Shown here one piece after another: positions 23,489-28,838 of a stretch of 64,000 nucleotides of DNA (its first letter is position 1; each line of letters begins with the position of its first letter). Origin of the DNA: Escherichia phage PNJ-9; sequence record PQ100635.1; one strand, 5' to 3'. The notes under the pieces are model-generated. The model saw only the letters and a program-made list of their open reading frames with translations, had not been told where the DNA came from and made no database searches. A program made the translations under genes and the position numbers.

Positions 23489-23744
23489 AGTGTACGGGTA
23501 CGACTCTACTATTCATAAATGCATTTATTGCGATAATGCGAAACGATTGCTGACTGTTAAGAAACAGCCATTCGAATTCATTAATGTTATGCCAGAAAAA
23601 GGTGTTTTTGATGATGAGAAAATTGCTGAGCTTCTGGTTAAGCTTGGACGTGAATCACAAGTCGGATTGACTATGCCTCAAGTGTTTGCTCCTGATGGAA
23701 CTTCGATCGGTGGCTTTGACCAACTACGAGAATATTTTAAATGA
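23481..23744 (+). CDS. nrdC: glutaredoxin/thioredoxin NrdC
   Basis: MFKVYGYDSTIHKCIYCDNAKRLL... near-identical to T4 NrdC; CxxC active site. Confidence 0.93.
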   Translation: MFKVYGYDSTIHKCIYCDNAKRLLTVKKQPFEFINVMPEKGVFDDEKIAELLVKLGRESQVGLTMPQVFAPDGTSIGGFDQLREYFK

Positions 23745-24097
23745 CATATTCATTAAATCTTAAAGATTTCCAAGATGTATACGAAGTTTGTGCCAATGAA
23801 CTTGGTCCTGATGCTCCAACTATTATTGAAGTTTTAAATGTGCTCCCTTCATCATTAGCTTACGAAGCCAAATCATGGGGTTGGAACGACACTGTCGTTC
23901 GTGATGACCTTTACGTCCTGATGAACGATATGATGCTTAAAAAGGCAGAACCGGTTGCACCAATGGTTACCATTACCGTTGAAGAATATAATCGCCTGCA
24001 AGCCATTGAAGAGCTTCTGTGGAACATTGAATGTGACCTGCCATCCGGACTAGAATCCTGGATTGATTATGAAGAGCTCAATAAACTCCGGGGTTAA
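23741..24097 (+). CDS. hypothetical protein
   Basis: ATGA overlap. Confidence 0.55.
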   Translation: MTYSLNLKDFQDVYEVCANELGPDAPTIIEVLNVLPSSLAYEAKSWGWNDTVVRDDLYVLMNDMMLKKAEPVAPMVTITVEEYNRLQAIEELLWNIECDLPSGLESWIDYEELNKLRG

Positions 24098-24176: not shown

Positions 24177-24225
24177 GAACCTTCAATAAATGAATTAATT
24201 GATATGGAAATGGGAAGAGATTATT

Positions 24226-24396
24226 ATGCAAGTTAAATTATTGTACCGTTTATTAAAAAATGGCAAGCATGATTGGTATTTGCTTATTAAAACCGATCCG
24301 AATTTTTTCTCTGGACAACCATTTACAGTTCGTCCTACTAAACGTCAGCTTCGCAAAGCTAAACGTTCCCATCGTAACTTTTATAGAGAATATTGA
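24226..24396 (+). CDS. small basic protein, RPTKRQ-tail family
   Basis: C-terminus VRPTKRQLRKAKRSHRNFYREY. Confidence 0.45.
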   Translation: MQVKLLYRLLKNGKHDWYLLIKTDPNFFSGQPFTVRPTKRQLRKAKRSHRNFYREY

Positions 24397-24397
24397 T

Positions 24398-24811
24398 ATG
24401 AATATTTCTGAAACTCGCGGTAAATGGTTCAAGATTGTTAAAGAAGACGAAGAACTCCAAGATAAGTTTCCTGAATTAAAGAAAGATACGATCATCAAGG
24501 TAATTGGTACTACTACCGAAGATGGTTATGGCGACCATGGCATTATCGAAGTGATGTTGAACACAGGTGAGAAACTTTGCATCTATGACCGTGATACTTC
24601 TCTTTGGTGCTTCTGGGAATCCCATTCAATAGATGAACTCGAAGAAATTGACCAAGTAGTTTGTGATGGTGGACTTGGCGAATTCGAAGGTGAACGTATT
24701 TCTTATGCTTTAGCTAAATTAGCCGCCCAAGAAAATAATGACGGTTATGAAGGTAATCTGATGCAAGCCGCAGCGGAATACATTGAATATTTAGAAAGAC
24801 GTTTAAGTTAA
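24398..24811 (+). CDS. hypothetical acidic protein
   Basis: ORF track 24260-24811; ATG at 24398. Confidence 0.55.
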   Translation: MNISETRGKWFKIVKEDEELQDKFPELKKDTIIKVIGTTTEDGYGDHGIIEVMLNTGEKLCIYDRDTSLWCFWESHSIDELEEIDQVVCDGGLGEFEGERISYALAKLAAQENNDGYEGNLMQAAAEYIEYLERRLS

Positions 24812-24820
24812 GGGCTTATT

Positions 24821-25000
24821 ATGAAAACTGCATTATTTTTTGGCGAAAGAACAAACGGTCAAAAATCTTGGAAATTTGTTATAATTGGTGCTCCAAACAA
24901 TCCGAACATGAGGACTTCAATCATTTCGGTAACACGTCCTACTAAAAGAATGATTCGCCAATACAAACGTTTCCATCGTGACTTTTATAACATTTATTAA
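24821..25000 (+). CDS. small basic protein, RPTKR-tail family (59 aa), not on ORF track
   Basis: C-terminus TRPTKRMIRQYKRFHRDFYNIY paralogous to 24226 ORF. Confidence 0.4.
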   Translation: MKTALFFGERTNGQKSWKFVIIGAPNNPNMRTSIISVTRPTKRMIRQYKRFHRDFYNIY

Positions 25001-25038: not shown

Positions 25039-25512
25039 ATGTTATTATCTGGCAAATTATACAAAGAAGAAAAACAAAAATTTTATGATGCACAGAATGG
25101 TAAGTGTCCTATTTGCCACCGTGAATTAGACCCTGATGTTCAAGGTAACCATCTTGACCACGACCACGAATTAAACGGGCCAAAAGCAGGTAGAGTTCGT
25201 GGGTTACTCTGTAATCTGTGCAACGCAGCAGAAGGCCAAATGAAGCATAAGTTCAACCGTTCCGGTCTTAAAGGACGTGATGTCGACTACCTCGAATGGC
25301 TTGAAGCTCTTCTTGCTTATTTGAAACAAGATTATTCTGATAATAATATCCATCCTAATTTTGTTCCAGACAAAACTAAAGAGTTCTCAAGACTAGGTAA
25401 AGAGGAAATGATGGCTGAGATGCTTCAAAGAGGATTTGAATATAATGAATCTGATACCAAAACACAATTAATAGCTTCATTCAAAAAGCAGCTTAGAAAG
25501 AGTTTAAAATGA
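25039..25512 (+). CDS. 49: endonuclease VII (Holliday junction resolvase)
   Basis: MLLSGKLYKEEKQKFYDAQNGKCPIC...HLDHDHELNG matches T4 gp49; 157 aa. Confidence 0.95.
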   Translation: MLLSGKLYKEEKQKFYDAQNGKCPICHRELDPDVQGNHLDHDHELNGPKAGRVRGLLCNLCNAAEGQMKHKFNRSGLKGRDVDYLEWLEALLAYLKQDYSDNNIHPNFVPDKTKEFSRLGKEEMMAEMLQRGFEYNESDTKTQLIASFKKQLRKSLK

Positions 25513-26046
25513 AAATTGAAAAAGAAATTGAAGGATTAATTCATAAAACTAATAAAGATCTTTTGAACGAGAATGCTAATAAAGATTCTCGTGTTTTTCC
25601 AACTCAACGGGACCTTATGGCTGGTATTGTGTCTAAGCACATTGCCAAAAATACGGTCCCGTCTTTTATTATGAAAGCACATGAAAGCGGAATTATCCAT
25701 TTCCATGATATTGATTATTCTCCTGCTCTTCCATTTACTAATTGCTGTTTAGTCGATTTAAAGGGGATGCTTGAGAATGGATTTAAATTAGGCAATGCTC
25801 AAATTGAAACGCCTAAATCGATTGGTGTTGCTACTGCAATTATGGCACAAATTACTGCGCAGGTTGCTTCCCATCAATACGGTGGAACTACATTTGCGAA
25901 TGTAGATAAAGTCCTTTCTCCTTATGTTAAACGCACCTACGCAAAACATATTGAAGATGCAGAAAAATGGCAAATCTCTGATGCGTTGAATTATGCCCAA
26001 TCTAAAACAGAAAAAGATGTCTATGACGCGTTCCAGGCGTATGAGT
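25509..26046 (+). CDS. nrdD: anaerobic ribonucleotide reductase NrdD, exon 1
   Basis: Class III RNR N-terminal region; frame interrupted at 26046 by group I intron. Confidence 0.85.
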
Positions 26047-27079
26047 TAATTTAATTCAGGCTCATGTAAAACCGGTCTAAACGGGGAACCTCTCTAGTAG
26101 ACAATCCCGTGCTAAATGTTCTTTTGAACTAAATGCCTAACGACTAACCGTGATGAATGTAGCGGTGTAGAATAGAAGCTAATGCTATTCGAAACGGCCG
26201 GCATCGAAAGATGAAGATATAGTCTAATCTGCATGGCGACATGCAGCAGTCATCTTGTATAAATAAGATTATCTTATGAATACGAGGTGAAACAATGAAA
26301 TGGATAAAAAGACGTTGTACTAAAATAAAAGATAAAGACGCATTTACATACTTAGTTAAGTTTTCTAATGGTGACATTTATATCGGTTATAAAAAATTTA
26401 GAACAATTAAAAACAAGCCCACAAACTGGAAAACTTACACAACGTCATCTAAGTATATAAATGAACGCTTAAAAACTGATACACCTACTAAATGGATAAT
26501 TTTAAAAACATTTGATAGTTATAAAGATGCATTAAAACATGAAGAAGAGGTCATACGTAAATATTTTTATAGCAAAAAATGTTTAAATAAATCCATAGGC
26601 GGTAAAAAGTTTTATAAGCATCCGGATACTGAAGAACATATTCAAAAATTAAGAGATGCTCATAAGGGTAAAGTGTTATCCGAATCTCATAAAAACAATA
26701 TAAAATCTTCTGTAGCTGAATATTATGCTAAAAACGGAAGATCTAAGGAACATGTGCAAAATAATATCAATAGTCGAAAAAGTAAAAAACAAGTATCGAT
26801 AAAGCTTAAAAATAAAACTTTTAGAAGTTTTAAAAAAGCAGCGGAATATTTAAATTGCACTGAAAGTGAAGTCGAAACTCATCCTCTTGTTTTGAGTATT
26901 AAGACTACTATTCATAAAGTTCCTGAATATGTGGTTGTTGACGGTATTAAGTATACGTCTTATATAGAAGCAGCTAAAGCGCTAAATTTTCATCCTAGCA
27001 CTATAAAAGAACGTTGCATATCTATGGACTATCCAAATTTTGTTGTTTCATATAAACGGGCATGAATTTGCGACTCATG
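26047..27079 (+). mobile_element. group I self-splicing intron in nrdD (T4 sunY/nrdD-type), 1033 nt
   Basis: P1: exon UAUGAGU pairs with GCUCAUG with U.G at splice site; conserved core CTAAACGGGGAACCTCTCTAGTAGACAATCCCGTGCTAAAT; P10 CUGAAU pairs with AUUCAG; omega G at 27079. Confidence 0.85.
26295..27065 (+). CDS. intron-encoded GIY-YIG homing endonuclease (I-TevII-like)
   Basis: GIY-YIG-like FTYLVKFSNGDIYIGY; lysine-rich, AT-rich; located 3' of intron core. Confidence 0.8.
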   Translation: MKWIKRRCTKIKDKDAFTYLVKFSNGDIYIGYKKFRTIKNKPTNWKTYTTSSKYINERLKTDTPTKWIILKTFDSYKDALKHEEEVIRKYFYSKKCLNKSIGGKKFYKHPDTEEHIQKLRDAHKGKVLSESHKNNIKSSVAEYYAKNGRSKEHVQNNINSRKSKKQVSIKLKNKTFRSFKKAAEYLNCTESEVETHPLVLSIKTTIHKVPEYVVVDGIKYTSYIEAAKALNFHPSTIKERCISMDYPNFVVSYKRA

Positions 27080-28371
27080 CTGAATATAATGATGAAGTAA
27101 ATACACTTTTCAGCTCTAATGGACAAACGCCTTTTGTAACAATTACATTTGGCACGGGAACTGACTGGACTGAACGAATGATTCAGAAAGCAATTCTGAA
27201 AAATCGTATTAAAGGTCTTGGCCGTGACGGGATAACTCCTATTTTCCCTAAACTTGTTATGTTCGTTGAAGAGGGTGTCAATCTTTATAAAGACGACCCG
27301 AACTACGATATTAAGCAGCTTGCTTTAGAATGCGCAAGCAAAAGAATGTATCCTGATATTATTTCAGTTAAGAACAATAAAGCTATTACTGGTTCTTCAG
27401 TTCCTGTTTCTCCGATGGGCTGTCGTAGTTTCTTGAGCGTATGGAAAGATTCGACTGGTAATGAAATTCTTGATGGACGTAATAATCTTGGTGTTGTAAC
27501 ACTGAATCTTCCTCGTATTGCATTAGATTCTTATATTGGAACACAATTCAATGAACAGAAATTTGTTGAGCTATTTAATGAACGAATGGATCTGTGTTTT
27601 GAAGCTTTGATGTGTAGAATTAGTTCTTTAAAGGGTGTTAAAGCAACTGTAGCTCCTATTCTTTACCAAGAAGGTGCATTCGGGGTTCGTCTTAAACCTG
27701 ATGACGATATAATTGAGTTATTTAAAAATGGTAGAAGTTCAGTGTCCCTAGGATACATTGGTATTCACGAATTGAATATTCTTGTCGGACGTGATATTGG
27801 ACAGGAAATTTTAACTAAAATGAATGCTCGTCTTAAGCAGTGGACTGAAAGAACCGGTTTTGCTTTTAGTTTATATTCTACTCCTGCTGAAAACCTTTGT
27901 TATCGCTTCTGTAAACTTGATACAGAAAAATATGGAAGTGTAAAAGATGTCACCGATAAAGGCTGGTACACTAACAGTTTCCACGTTTCAGTAGAAGAAA
28001 ATATTACTCCATTTGAAAAGATTTCTCGTGAAGCCCCATATCATTTCATTGCAACAGGCGGTCACATTTCTTATGTTGAACTTCCAGATATGAAAAATAA
28101 CTTAAAAGGTCTTGAGGCTGTCTGGGATTATGCTGCACAACATTTAGATTATTTTGGTGTTAATATGCCAGTAGATAAATGTTTTACATGTGGAAGTACT
28201 CATGAAATGACTCCTACTGAAAACGGATTTGTTTGTTCAGTTTGTGGAGAAAGTGATCCTAAAAAGATGAACACCATAAGAAGAACATGTGGTTATTTGG
28301 GAAATCCGAACGAACGCGGATTTAATCTCGGTAAAAATAAAGAAATCATGCATAGGGTTAAACACCAATGA
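27080..28371 (+). CDS. nrdD: anaerobic ribonucleotide reductase NrdD, exon 2
   Basis: Continues frame after intron; C-terminal Zn site CxxC...CxxC and glycyl-radical region RTCGYLG. Confidence 0.85.
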
Positions 28372-28838
28372 ATTATGATAGATTTTATCCTTGCGATTTT
28401 GTGAATGGCCCTGGTTGCAGGGTCGTTCTTTTCGTTACAGGTTGTTTGCATAAATGCGAAGGGTGTTATAATAAATCAACATGGAACGCTAGAAATGGTA
28501 TTCCATTCACTGGTGAAACACTAGAACAATTGATTGAATGTTTGAATAATGATTATATAGAAGGATTAACTATAACCGGAGGAGATCCTCTCTATCCTGA
28601 TAACCGAGATGTTATTCATCGCATTGCTCAAACAGTAAAAAATCTTTATCCCAATAAAAGCATTTGGTTGTGGACAGGATATAAGTTTGAAGATATTAAA
28701 CAACTAGAAATGCTTAAATATGTTGATGTTATTATTGATGGGAAGTATGAGAAAAATCTTCCGACTAAAAAGATGTGGCGAGGATCAGATAATCAGCGAC
28801 TTTGGTCAAATACCGATGGGGTGTGGAAACATGATTAA
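28368..28838 (+). CDS. nrdG: anaerobic RNR activating enzyme NrdG (radical SAM)
   Basis: CLHKCEGC radical-SAM cluster motif; ATGA overlap with nrdD. Confidence 0.92.
   Translation: MNYDRFYPCDFVNGPGCRVVLFVTGCLHKCEGCYNKSTWNARNGIPFTGETLEQLIECLNNDYIEGLTITGGDPLYPDNRDVIHRIAQTVKNLYPNKSIWLWTGYKFEDIKQLEMLKYVDVIIDGKYEKNLPTKKMWRGSDNQRLWSNTDGVWKHD

Follow-up and report, generated by a model that had tools for sequence, protein, structure and literature searches.

The insertion in nrdD, the anaerobic ribonucleotide reductase gene, of the T4-like Escherichia phage PNJ-9 is a genuine group I intron with a homing-endonuclease gene inside. We are confident that it is a mobile intron of the IA type, spanning positions 26047–27091, located at the nrdD site of the T4 nrdD (sunY) intron and forming a separate, diverged lineage. 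Positions refer to the window, i.e., the whole 64,000-nt stretch of the PNJ-9 genome that was analysed (record PQ100635.1), and all features lie on its + strand. Direct results of the analysis were the fold of the ribozyme with its covariation, the site of insertion, the ORFs, the hairpin and promoter sequences and the presence/absence polymorphism among phages. The arrangement is a textbook one, making the element an ordinary further example of a phage group I intron with an endonuclease, and a diverged sister of the T4 nrdD intron. A preliminary description had correctly recognized the type of element (a group I intron that carries a GIY-YIG ORF and interrupts nrdD at the codon used by the T4 sunY intron). 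It gave a length of 1033 nt (26047–27079); by our comparisons the intron is instead 1,045 nt long (26047–27091), with the 3′ splice site after G27091.

Intron extent and 5′ side

The 1,045-nt intron had no counterpart in intron-less alleles. It was homologous to the 1,033-nt T4 intron, matched Rfam and had a conserved 3′ end. The previously given 1,033 nt equals the length of the T4 intron (2,851 minus 1,818 nt) by coincidence. The covariance-model search suggested in the preliminary description found RF00028 (Intron_gpI) at 26015–26246 with 74 bits against a gathering threshold of 50, covering model positions 1–253 of 253 (E = 1.3e-18 locally and 6.4e-17 for the whole window). The default whole-window Rfam scan at the gathering threshold missed the intron due to filter loss, and the 74-bit match came from a permissive scan. 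Weak snoRNA matches in exon 2 (E = 3–5) were discarded as chance.

Exon 1 of nrdD (25509–26046) ended one base into the Tyr180 codon, after 179 complete codons. It formed an ORF, matched positions 1–141 of the Pfam NRDD profile and was ~92% identical to T4 exon 1. As previously reported, the exon 1 frame, open from 25509 onward, ends at 26052–26054, at an in-frame UAA in the P1 loop two codons into the intron, which terminates translation from exon 1. The equivalent UAA in the P1 loop of the T4 nrdD intron is one codon further in. The P1 hairpin (26040–26066) had 7 bp, formed by the exon sequence UAUGAGU (26040–26046) and the guide GCUCAUG (26060–26066), and all seven pairs were identical in T4. 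The 5′ splice site, marked by the U26046·G26060 pair, had been placed correctly. The intron half of P10, UUCA (26055–26058), pairs with UGAA of exon 2 (27093–27096), in the register of the 3-bp UCA/UGA pairing of T4.

Ribozyme core

The catalytic core helices were located between 26072 and 26224, and every pair forms in the window sequence. Compared with the T4 nrdD intron, two compensatory double changes each were found in P3 (26072–77/26196–201), P4 (26081–86/26105–10) and P7.1 (26147–50/26163–66), and three each in P6a (26118–21/26126–29) and P7.2 (26170–75/26185–90). Thus, 12 base pairs in five helices were altered on both sides, with the core helices all kept. P5 (26091–93/26099–101), P6 (26111–12/26135–36), P7 (26142–46/26220–24) and P9, a 7-bp stem-loop with a GCGA tetraloop (26229–26246), were fully conserved. 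P8 (26202–05/26210–13) paired in the window and differed in sequence from T4. Pairing was broken relative to T4 only where helix lengths differ, in P7.2 and P8. In phage SA20RB the P9 stem-loop carries a “terminator” annotation.

Two additional helices lying between P7 and P3′, namely P7.1 and P7.2, placed the intron in the IA subgroup. The T4 database record labels the T4 nrdD intron “group 1A”.

For the ORF-less 345-nt copy of phage BYEP01, an unconstrained fold recovered all core helices but the pseudoknotted P7 (z = −3.4). P1 and P9.2 as modelled were not returned by this whole-molecule fold, which was uninformative for the 3′ end. The covariation was drawn from two nrdD intron lineages and three more distant introns, since searches for more diverse copies yielded none.

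Endonuclease gene and its control region

The 256-codon GIY-YIG ORF noted before was confirmed at 26295–27065. Its 256-aa product is an I-TevII-like homing endonuclease with GIY-YIG and NUMOD1 domains. The Pfam profile PF19835 (SegE_GIY-YIG) matched residues 9–86 with 26.6 bits, a small margin over the cut-off of 25; NUMOD1 was also above its cut-off, and phrog_314 “homing endonuclease” gave 103 bits. Identity with I-TevII (258 aa) was 56% over 256 of 258 residues (E = 1e-101), the similarity spanning both the N-terminal and the C-terminal halves. Sequence search matched no solved structure to the endonuclease. I-TevII is classed as an active GIY-YIG enzyme (PMC2988022; also the T4 database record).

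Upstream of the ORF, the Shine-Dalgarno sequence GAGG (26284–26287) was predicted to be sequestered in a hairpin (26250–26290) of −17.3 kcal/mol (z = −5.1). The T4 counterpart had −15.6 kcal/mol (z = −4.8). Within the hairpin we recognized a putative T4-type late promoter, TATAAATA (26258–26265); the annotation of SA20RB has a late promoter at the same site. RNA beginning at 26272 was predicted to be unstructured. The late-promoter-in-hairpin arrangement has been described for I-TevII of T4 (PMC2988022), as has a homing-site mimic upstream of the ORF (PMC2988022). In PNJ-9 the mimic, a putative operator, had the sequence CTTATGAATACGAGGTGAA (26273–26291), with 14 of 19 positions matching the exon junction CGTATGAGT|ATGAAGTAAA and the match centred on the junction; 66 of 2,000 shuffles matched the exon junction equally well. 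The T4 nrdD intron likewise has its ORF in the 3′ periphery, its end overlapping P9.2, and the same control hairpin and 19-nt mimic before it. All three elements before the ORF (late promoter, hairpin sequestering the RBS, and mimic) are thereby conserved between the two phages.

Expression timing, DNA cleavage and homing of the PNJ-9 intron, like its catalysis, are extrapolated from T4. The endonuclease gene is located between P9 and P9.2, with its stop codon inside P9.2. On long early and middle transcripts its RBS would be locked in the hairpin, and only transcripts from the late promoter TATAAATA within the hairpin would free it. The I-TevII relative would then cut the intron-less nrdD of a co-infecting phage, and repair would copy the intron in (homing).

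Distribution and mobility

The PNJ-9-type intron was present in ~44 public phage genomes: an endonuclease of at least 95% identity was found in 44 of ~1,133 nrdD-bearing phage records. In 358 records the nrdD junction was uninterrupted, and further records carried the T4-type intron. Presence and absence vary at one precise site among close relatives, and this sporadic distribution is as expected for a mobile element. Exon divergence from T4 was only mildly raised beside the intron.

The intron was 99–100% conserved across dozens of independent isolates. Among the matches listed, the full-length endonuclease ORF was 100% identical in 18 isolates from different continents, and it was at least 99% identical in 40 records. 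Scans of IMG/VR and JGI metagenomes by endonuclease alignment returned a single locus apiece: a copy of the T4 type in one case and a 100% identical one in the other. A search of 5.8 billion proteins returned only the two known endonuclease clusters, with no intermediates between that of PNJ-9 and that of T4.

Immobile introns do occur, as in T4 nrdB, whose I-TevIII is defective. An intron in PNJ-9 that splices, with an endonuclease inactive or of changed specificity and hence no longer mobile at this site, seems unlikely to us. The 56% identity to I-TevII and the marginal GIY-YIG score in Pfam would fit such an element, and the frameshifted two-piece endonuclease copies in F1, FN and 236Ecol005PP, together with the deleted copy in BYEP01, show that decay happens. 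Against it, the ORF is full length and invariant in the 18 isolates, its resemblance to I-TevII continues through both halves, none of the promoter, the RBS hairpin and the homing-site mimic has been lost, and the intron is scattered among otherwise closely related phages.

3′ splice site

The RF00028 model stops short of the 3′ end of the intron, so that homology and structural comparison had to serve for locating the 3′ splice site. By the group I rule, the terminal omega-G at this site is placed by P9.0 and P10 (PMC11417360). The comparisons put the site after G27091, 12 nt downstream of G27079, where the preliminary description had it. Intron-less alleles read TATGA(A/G)|TATGAAGTA, without the extra 12 nt of the earlier reading, and the corrected exon junction is GAGT|ATGAAG, compared with GAGT|CTGAATATAATGATGAAG under that reading. 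The resumption of the nrdD frame at 27080, also invoked earlier, defines no site, because downstream of the insertion this frame is open from as early as 27040.

The intron ends with a P9.2 hairpin (27060–27080), in which GCAUGA (27060–27065) pairs with UCAUGC (27075–27080). All six pairs were present in each of five related introns; the sequence of P9.2 differed in every lineage while the pairing was kept, i.e., the five introns showed covariation. The MAFFT alignment of the tails shifted the 5′ strand of the T4 P9.2 one column out of register, and P9.2 was for this reason scored per sequence by script. When the 3′ tail was folded in isolation, P9.2 was the minimum-free-energy structure in four of the five introns. 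The hairpin includes the ORF stop UGA (27063–27065), G27079, formerly taken as omega-G, and C27080, formerly the first “exon” base. ACUCAUG (27073–27079), which resembles the guide, was considered as a second P1-like element and rejected, as it is the 3′ strand of P9.2.

P9.2 is followed by the conserved single-stranded tail UGAAUAUAAU and the terminal G27091, the putative omega-G (27081–27091). The spacing of UGAAY, five nucleotides and G after P9.2 was invariant in PNJ-9, T4 nrdD, td, Felixounavirus and rV5-like introns, and so was the position of G27091. With this end P10 has 4 bp in the T4 register, compared with 3 bp in T4 itself. A candidate P9.0 pair, 26228/27089, is U-A in PNJ-9 and A-U in T4 (one compensatory pair).

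An intron of 26047–27079 (1,033 nt), with G27079 as its terminal nucleotide chosen by a 6-bp P10, and with a Ser codon at the junction and a 609-aa NrdD carrying four additional residues, is very improbable. The complementarity that had suggested it is real: AUUCAG (26054–26059) pairs perfectly with CUGAAU (27080–27085), in the canonical place beside the P1 part of the guide. A 6-bp P10 abutting the guide and preceded by G arose in only 52 of 20,000 shuffles, the product is in frame and stop-free, and the AU before G27079 could form the same 2-bp P9.0 as the AU before G27091. However, in CUGAAU the 3′ end of P9.2 runs into the conserved tail of the intron. Its counterpart in T4, CUGAAC, lies inside the intron, and the td, Felixounavirus and rV5-like introns have this motif at their 3′ ends; G27079 and C27080 are paired in P9.2, with covariation support in the five introns. 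Three of the six P10 pairs are not kept in T4; four of the six are expected anyway, UGAA being common to exon 2 and the conserved tail; and when pairing was allowed anywhere between the tail and the AT-rich P1 loop, a perfect 6-bp match turned up in 26% of shuffles. The 12 extra nucleotides are also missing from intron-less alleles, and T4 and bacterial NrdD open a four-residue gap at SEYN. Together with the T4 and PDB NrdD sequences and the 3′ architecture of the five introns, the intron-less alleles favour G27091. Since G27079 follows the same AU dinucleotide, it may occasionally serve as a cryptic site. Michel et al. reportedly treated 3′ splice-site choice in sunY in 1990. For group I introns, frame continuity and a good-looking P10 are insufficient to place a 3′ splice site; here, comparative data shifted it by 12 nt.

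NrdD product and annotation

The flanks of the intron together encode a single NrdD. Exon 2 (27092–28371) had 1,280 nt, as in T4, with the glycyl-radical domain, and was recognized by Pfam and by comparison with the T4 and PDB NrdD sequences. Joining 25509..26046 and 27092..28371 gives a protein of 605 aa, with TAT (Tyr) as junction codon in place of the Ser codon (TCT) described before. This protein was colinear with the T4 NrdD 1H78 and the bacterial NrdD 9D3X. The previously proposed 609-aa product found no support: its extra SEYN fell in a four-residue gap in both.

Splicing with G27091 as terminal nucleotide may proceed as follows. After synthesis of the nrdD pre-mRNA, exon 1 ribosomes would halt at the UAA (26052–26054) in the P1 loop and the ribozyme would fold. 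Free guanosine would attack after U26046, held in P1 as the U·G pair. G27091, 11 nt past P9.2, would then fill the guanosine site in P7, with exon 2 aligned by the short P10 (26055–26058 with 27093–27096). Ligation of the exons would give ...GAG-TAT-GAA..., i.e., ...AYE-Y-EVN..., and the 605-aa NrdD.

In the GenBank and RefSeq records inspected or seen listed for this intron type, nrdD was annotated as two separate CDSs plus the endonuclease. Exon 2 has no start codon where NrdD homology resumes, and the annotated downstream CDSs begin at an arbitrary internal ATG or TTG. In the inspected genomes, including RefSeq, the two nrdD fragments should be replaced by the join given above. The two-CDS annotation, and the fact that nrdD is dispensable during aerobic laboratory growth, would also suit an insertion that no longer splices, with NrdD either split into two polypeptides or not produced, which we consider the least probable reading given the intact core helices with their compensatory changes, the Rfam score well over threshold, the near-identity of the intron in dozens of independent isolates, the presence of the U·G pair, terminal G, P9.2 and tail, the missing start codon, and the entire ribozyme retained in the ORF-deleted BYEP01 copy.

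Relationship to other phage introns

The PNJ-9 and T4 nrdD introns share the host gene and the exact insertion point (…TATGAGT|ATGAAG…). The helix set is the same, including P7.1, P7.2 and P9.2, and the P1, P7 and P9 stems are identical, whereas P3, P4, P6a, P7.1, P7.2, P8 and P9.2 differ in sequence. The match to T4 claimed in the preliminary description thus holds for the arrangement and fails for the sequence: nucleotide identity is ~64% in the intron, far below the ~94% in the exons, and the endonuclease, 56% identical to I-TevII, forms a separate cluster. With the PNJ-9 intron as megablast query, T4 records were matched only through their td intron.

The conserved phage core reported earlier, a 41-nt string, was found at 26077–26117; it is identical to the td intron and not to the T4 nrdD intron. 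The whole P3′-P4-P5-P6 segment (26076–26117) matched the td intron in 42 of 42 nt, compared with 34 of 42 for the T4 nrdD intron. The T4/RB7 td intron, which encodes I-TevI, also has the same P9 and the same 3′ architecture (P9.2 - CUGAAC - AUAAU - G), a GIY-YIG-class endonuclease and the late-promoter/hairpin logic seen in PNJ-9. It differs in its host gene, thymidylate synthase, and in having the ORF in the P6 region, as opposed to the 3′ periphery in PNJ-9. Identity between the two ribozymes was 66% overall, and I-TevI had no detectable similarity to the PNJ-9 endonuclease in the searches made.

The P6′-P7-P7.1 segment (26129–26170) was identical in 41 of 42 nt to nrdD introns of Felixounavirus (phage D1-2) and rV5-like phages (VB-EcoM-WM). 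These have the nrdD host family and the 3′ terminal architecture in common with PNJ-9, but occupy a different nrdD codon (…SPMG|CRSF…), have 65–70% identity overall, and are either ORF-less (316 nt) or carry an HNH endonuclease in the P6 region (762 nt). RF00028 scored them with 55.7 bits and 32.9 bits, the latter below threshold.

By these alignments, the PNJ-9 ribozyme is a patchwork, with one segment matching td and another matching nrdD introns from unrelated phages. This hints, modestly but cleanly, at an exchange of modules among ribozymes. Bryk & Belfort are said to have reported intron domain shuffling in 1990. More tentatively, the intron could be a natural chimera, which kept the nrdD guide, the I-TevII-lineage endonuclease and its hairpin, took P4-P5 from a co-resident td intron, and shares P7-P7.1 with unrelated genera. 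If so, phage group I ribozymes would evolve in the wild by swapping structural modules. Two endonuclease lineages, only 56% identical, would then compete for one homing site, and their recognition might have diverged, letting one intron displace the other.

Our literature search found no description of a second nrdD-intron lineage. The PNJ-9 intron represents a second natural lineage of the I-TevII/sunY system and lends the sunY fold, P9.2 included, ready support from covariation. With I-TevII, its endonuclease makes a natural enzyme pair for studying drift in GIY-YIG target recognition at a fixed homing site.

An ORF-deleted copy of the PNJ-9 intron was found in Escherichia phage BYEP01. It occupies the same site, and its ribozyme agrees with that of PNJ-9 at almost every base (Rfam 72 bits). 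Loss of about 700 nt from the endonuclease ORF has reduced the intron to 345 nt, and the P9.2 loop has one substitution.

Locus and intron fold

The window belongs to a T4-like phage (Tequatrovirus) whose nrdD gene carries a textbook element: the nrdD intron with an I-TevII relative, here in a second lineage of that system. The preliminary description had recognized the kind of element, but set its 3' end 12 nt off and identified it too closely with T4. The region 25509-28371 matched 1,133 phage records, with 97% identity to Shigella phage SHSML-52-1. On the plus strand, nrdC and then a pin homologue lay upstream of gene 49 (endonuclease VII, 25039-25512). These were followed by a first NrdD frame (start 25509, TAA stop 26052-26054), an ORF of 256 codons (26295-27065), a further NrdD frame that is open from 27040 and ends at 28371, and nrdG. 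The Pfam NRDD profile was divided between the two pieces, with positions 1-141 in the first and 145-562 in the second, showing that nrdD is a single interrupted gene.

The covariance-model search that had been proposed as a check found RF00028 at 26015-26246, covering the whole model with 74 bits (gathering score 50), in local and permissive whole-window scans. The default Rfam gathering-threshold scan of 1-64000 gave no match, despite the 74-bit intron. Routine annotation can miss introns with such long ORF insertions through its speed filters.

We drew up a model of helices P1, P3-P9, P7.1 and P7.2 and compared each pair with the T4 nrdD intron. All modelled pairs formed in the window. P1, P5, P6, P7 and P9 were the same in both introns, and 12 double-sided changes with pairing retained were summed over P3, P4, P6a, P7.1 and P7.2. 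"Broken" pairs were confined to length differences in P7.2 and P8. Folded without constraints, a naturally ORF-less copy from Escherichia phage BYEP01 (345 nt, z = -3.4) returned P3, P4, P5, P6, P6a, P7.1, P7.2, P8 and P9, plus the pre-ORF hairpin. With helices intact and covariation against T4, the claim of a group I intron held. The 5' splice site was also as first described, UAUGAGU (26040-26046) pairing with GCUCAUG (26060-26066) and U26046.G26060 at the junction; the seven P1 pairs were also present in T4. In phage SA20RB, the ribozyme P9 stem-loop (L004 1383-1410, equivalent to window 26229-26256) was annotated as a "rho-independent terminator".

The 3' splice site

The 3' splice site had been placed after G27079, and five lines of evidence moved it to after G27091. 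A query spliced at G27079 aligned with intron-less phages over 188 nt, not 200 nt, the intron-less allele reading TATGAA/TATGAAGTAAAT (..YEYEVN..). The T4 gene (2,851 nt, protein of 605 aa) implies an intron of 1,033 nt and an exon 2 of 1,280 nt, and T4 exon 2 aligned without gaps to 27092-28371. The 1,033 nt first given for the window intron equalled the T4 length by coincidence, the homologous boundaries giving 1,045 nt. As references for the product we used NrdD of T4 (PDB 1H78) and one from a bacterium (9D3X). The 609-aa product predicted earlier had an additional SEYN falling on a four-residue gap in both, whereas splicing after G27091 gave 605 aa, gap-free against both.

We further compared five related introns: those of the window, T4 nrdD, td, Felixounavirus nrdD and rV5-like nrdD, the last two at a different codon. 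They had a common 3' architecture of CGG, P9.2 (6 bp, loop of 9-10 nt), UGAAY, 5 nt and a terminal G. All 6 P9.2 pairs formed in all five, with sequences differing by lineage. In the window, P9.2 pairs 27060-27065 with 27075-27080, so the terminal G and first "exon" base proposed earlier are paired helix positions, and CUGAAU is the helix end plus the conserved tail.

The P10 first proposed, CUGAAU (27080-27085) with AUUCAG (26054-26059) beside the guide sequence, is a real complementarity, but not one that sets the splice site. Three of its six pairs failed in T4, and four of the six arise because the conserved tail and exon 2 both have UGAA. In its exact geometry it was found in 52 of 20,000 shuffles; any 6-bp match of the AT-rich loop with the tail occurred in 26%. 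As a general rule, the 3' site is chosen by a terminal G beside P9.0, plus P10 (PMC11417360). In both introns the true exon 2 forms a short P10 in the same register (UUCA/UGAA in the window, UCA/UGA in T4). P9.0 was reportedly assigned for sunY by Michel et al. in 1990. Minor cryptic use of G27079 may occur.

A patchwork ribozyme

Overall, the ribozyme was 74% identical to that of the T4 nrdD intron. The "conserved phage core" noted earlier was present within 26076-26117 (P3'-P4-P5-P6), but this stretch was identical to the td intron (42/42) found in T4, RB7 and numerous other phages, whereas T4 nrdD differed at 8 positions (34/42). Stretch 26129-26170 (P6'-P7-P7.1) matched the Felixounavirus and rV5-like nrdD introns at 41 of 42 positions (T4 nrdD 35/42). 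These two occupy another nrdD site (...SPMG/CRSF...): that of Salmonella phage D1-2 (L008 1651-1966, 316 nt) is ORF-less, and that of Escherichia phage VB-EcoM-WM (L009 1206-1967, 762 nt) carries an ORF for an HNH endonuclease in its P6 region. T4 nrdD was the closest intron for the guide sequence and P1 loop, for P3'/P8 and for the hairpin that precedes the ORF. Module exchange between ribozymes is plausible from these matches, since recombination between co-resident T4 introns was reportedly observed by Bryk and Belfort in 1990; 26076-26117 may have originated by gene conversion between co-resident introns.

Endonuclease ORF and upstream control features

The 256-codon GIY-YIG ORF described earlier was confirmed, by a small margin for Pfam SegE_GIY-YIG (26.6 bits, cut-off 25), together with NUMOD1 (25.3, cut-off 22.8) and phrog_314 "homing endonuclease" (103 bits). 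No solved structure matched it by sequence search. P9 and P9.2 enclose the ORF, whose stop codon falls within the P9.2 5' strand; in T4 the ORF end likewise overlaps P9.2. Upstream, the Shine-Dalgarno GAGG is base-paired within a hairpin at 26250-26290 (-17.3 kcal/mol, z = -5.1), the T4 counterpart having -15.6 kcal/mol and z = -4.8. The hairpin contains the late promoter sequence TATAAATA (26258-26265), and RNA begun downstream of this promoter was unstructured on folding. Stretch 26273-26291 matched the exon junction at 14 of 19 positions, centred on the junction (equalled by 66 of 2,000 shuffles). A homing-site mimic and proposed operator was described for I-TevII (Loizos et al.), and by its sequence 26273-26291 is such a mimic, a putative operator.

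The analysis itself showed the fold, the intron boundaries, the ORF and the sequence features for regulation; the mechanism is most likely that of T4, from which we infer catalysis, timing, cleavage and homing. Exon-1 translation would halt two codons inside the intron, and the ribozyme would remove 26047-27091 and join the exons, giving the 605-aa NrdD. The endonuclease would be produced late in infection and cleave the intron-less nrdD of a co-infecting phage, repair then copying the intron in.

Divergence and distribution

The preliminary match to T4 was right as to the kind of element, but this is not T4's own intron: 377 of 1,052 aligned intron columns differed (~64% identity), against 114 of 1,818 exon positions (~94%). 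Along its whole length, the ORF product shared 56% identity with I-TevII. By megablast, 43 records carried at least 80% of the intron (99.3-100% identity among the matches listed), and T4 strains were matched only via 42 nt of their td intron. In the phage collection, 44 records encoded the endonuclease at ≥95% identity; the 32 matches at <60% were I-TevII-type (~56%) plus a few Seg-like proteins (31-34%), and none fell between the two groups. A collection of 5.8 billion proteins had only two clusters, with 64 (window type) and 38 (I-TevII) members. One further locus each came from scans of viral and of metagenome contigs. The intron is already in dozens of public genomes, with nrdD annotated as a split gene in the records inspected; within the limited literature searched, we found no paper describing this second lineage.

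In BYEP01 (L003 1601-1945), ~700 nt of the endonuclease ORF were deleted, and the remaining 345-nt intron kept its ribozyme intact (72 bits with Rfam). In phages F1, FN and 236Ecol005PP the ORF was frameshifted. Synonymous divergence from T4 was somewhat higher beside the intron (26018-26046, 27092-27131). Exon 1 had 7 differences in its final 38 nt, and 27102-27201 had 10, more than the other 100-nt blocks of exon 2 (1-9 each). The exon-1 flank of BYEP01 was T4-like despite its window-type intron, so flanks are not strictly tied to intron type.

Neighboring genes

No tRNA genes were found by ARAGORN in the whole 64,000-nt window. Directly 3' of nrdD, nrdG (28368-28838) overlaps it by 4 nt; between the two genes, T4 has mobC, a free-standing HNH endonuclease gene, and BYEP01 a NUMOD3 protein. 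On either side of the pin (Lon protease inhibitor) homologue (24260-24811) were two small paralogous ORFs, 24199-24396 (65 aa) and 24821-25000 (59 aa), both phrog_3272, with 36% mutual identity and a common C-terminal RPTKR…KR.HR.FY motif. The ORF at 23741-24097 (118 aa) matched families of unknown function in its N-terminal half and phrog_3402, "antitoxin from a toxin-antitoxin system", in its C-terminal half (111 bits).
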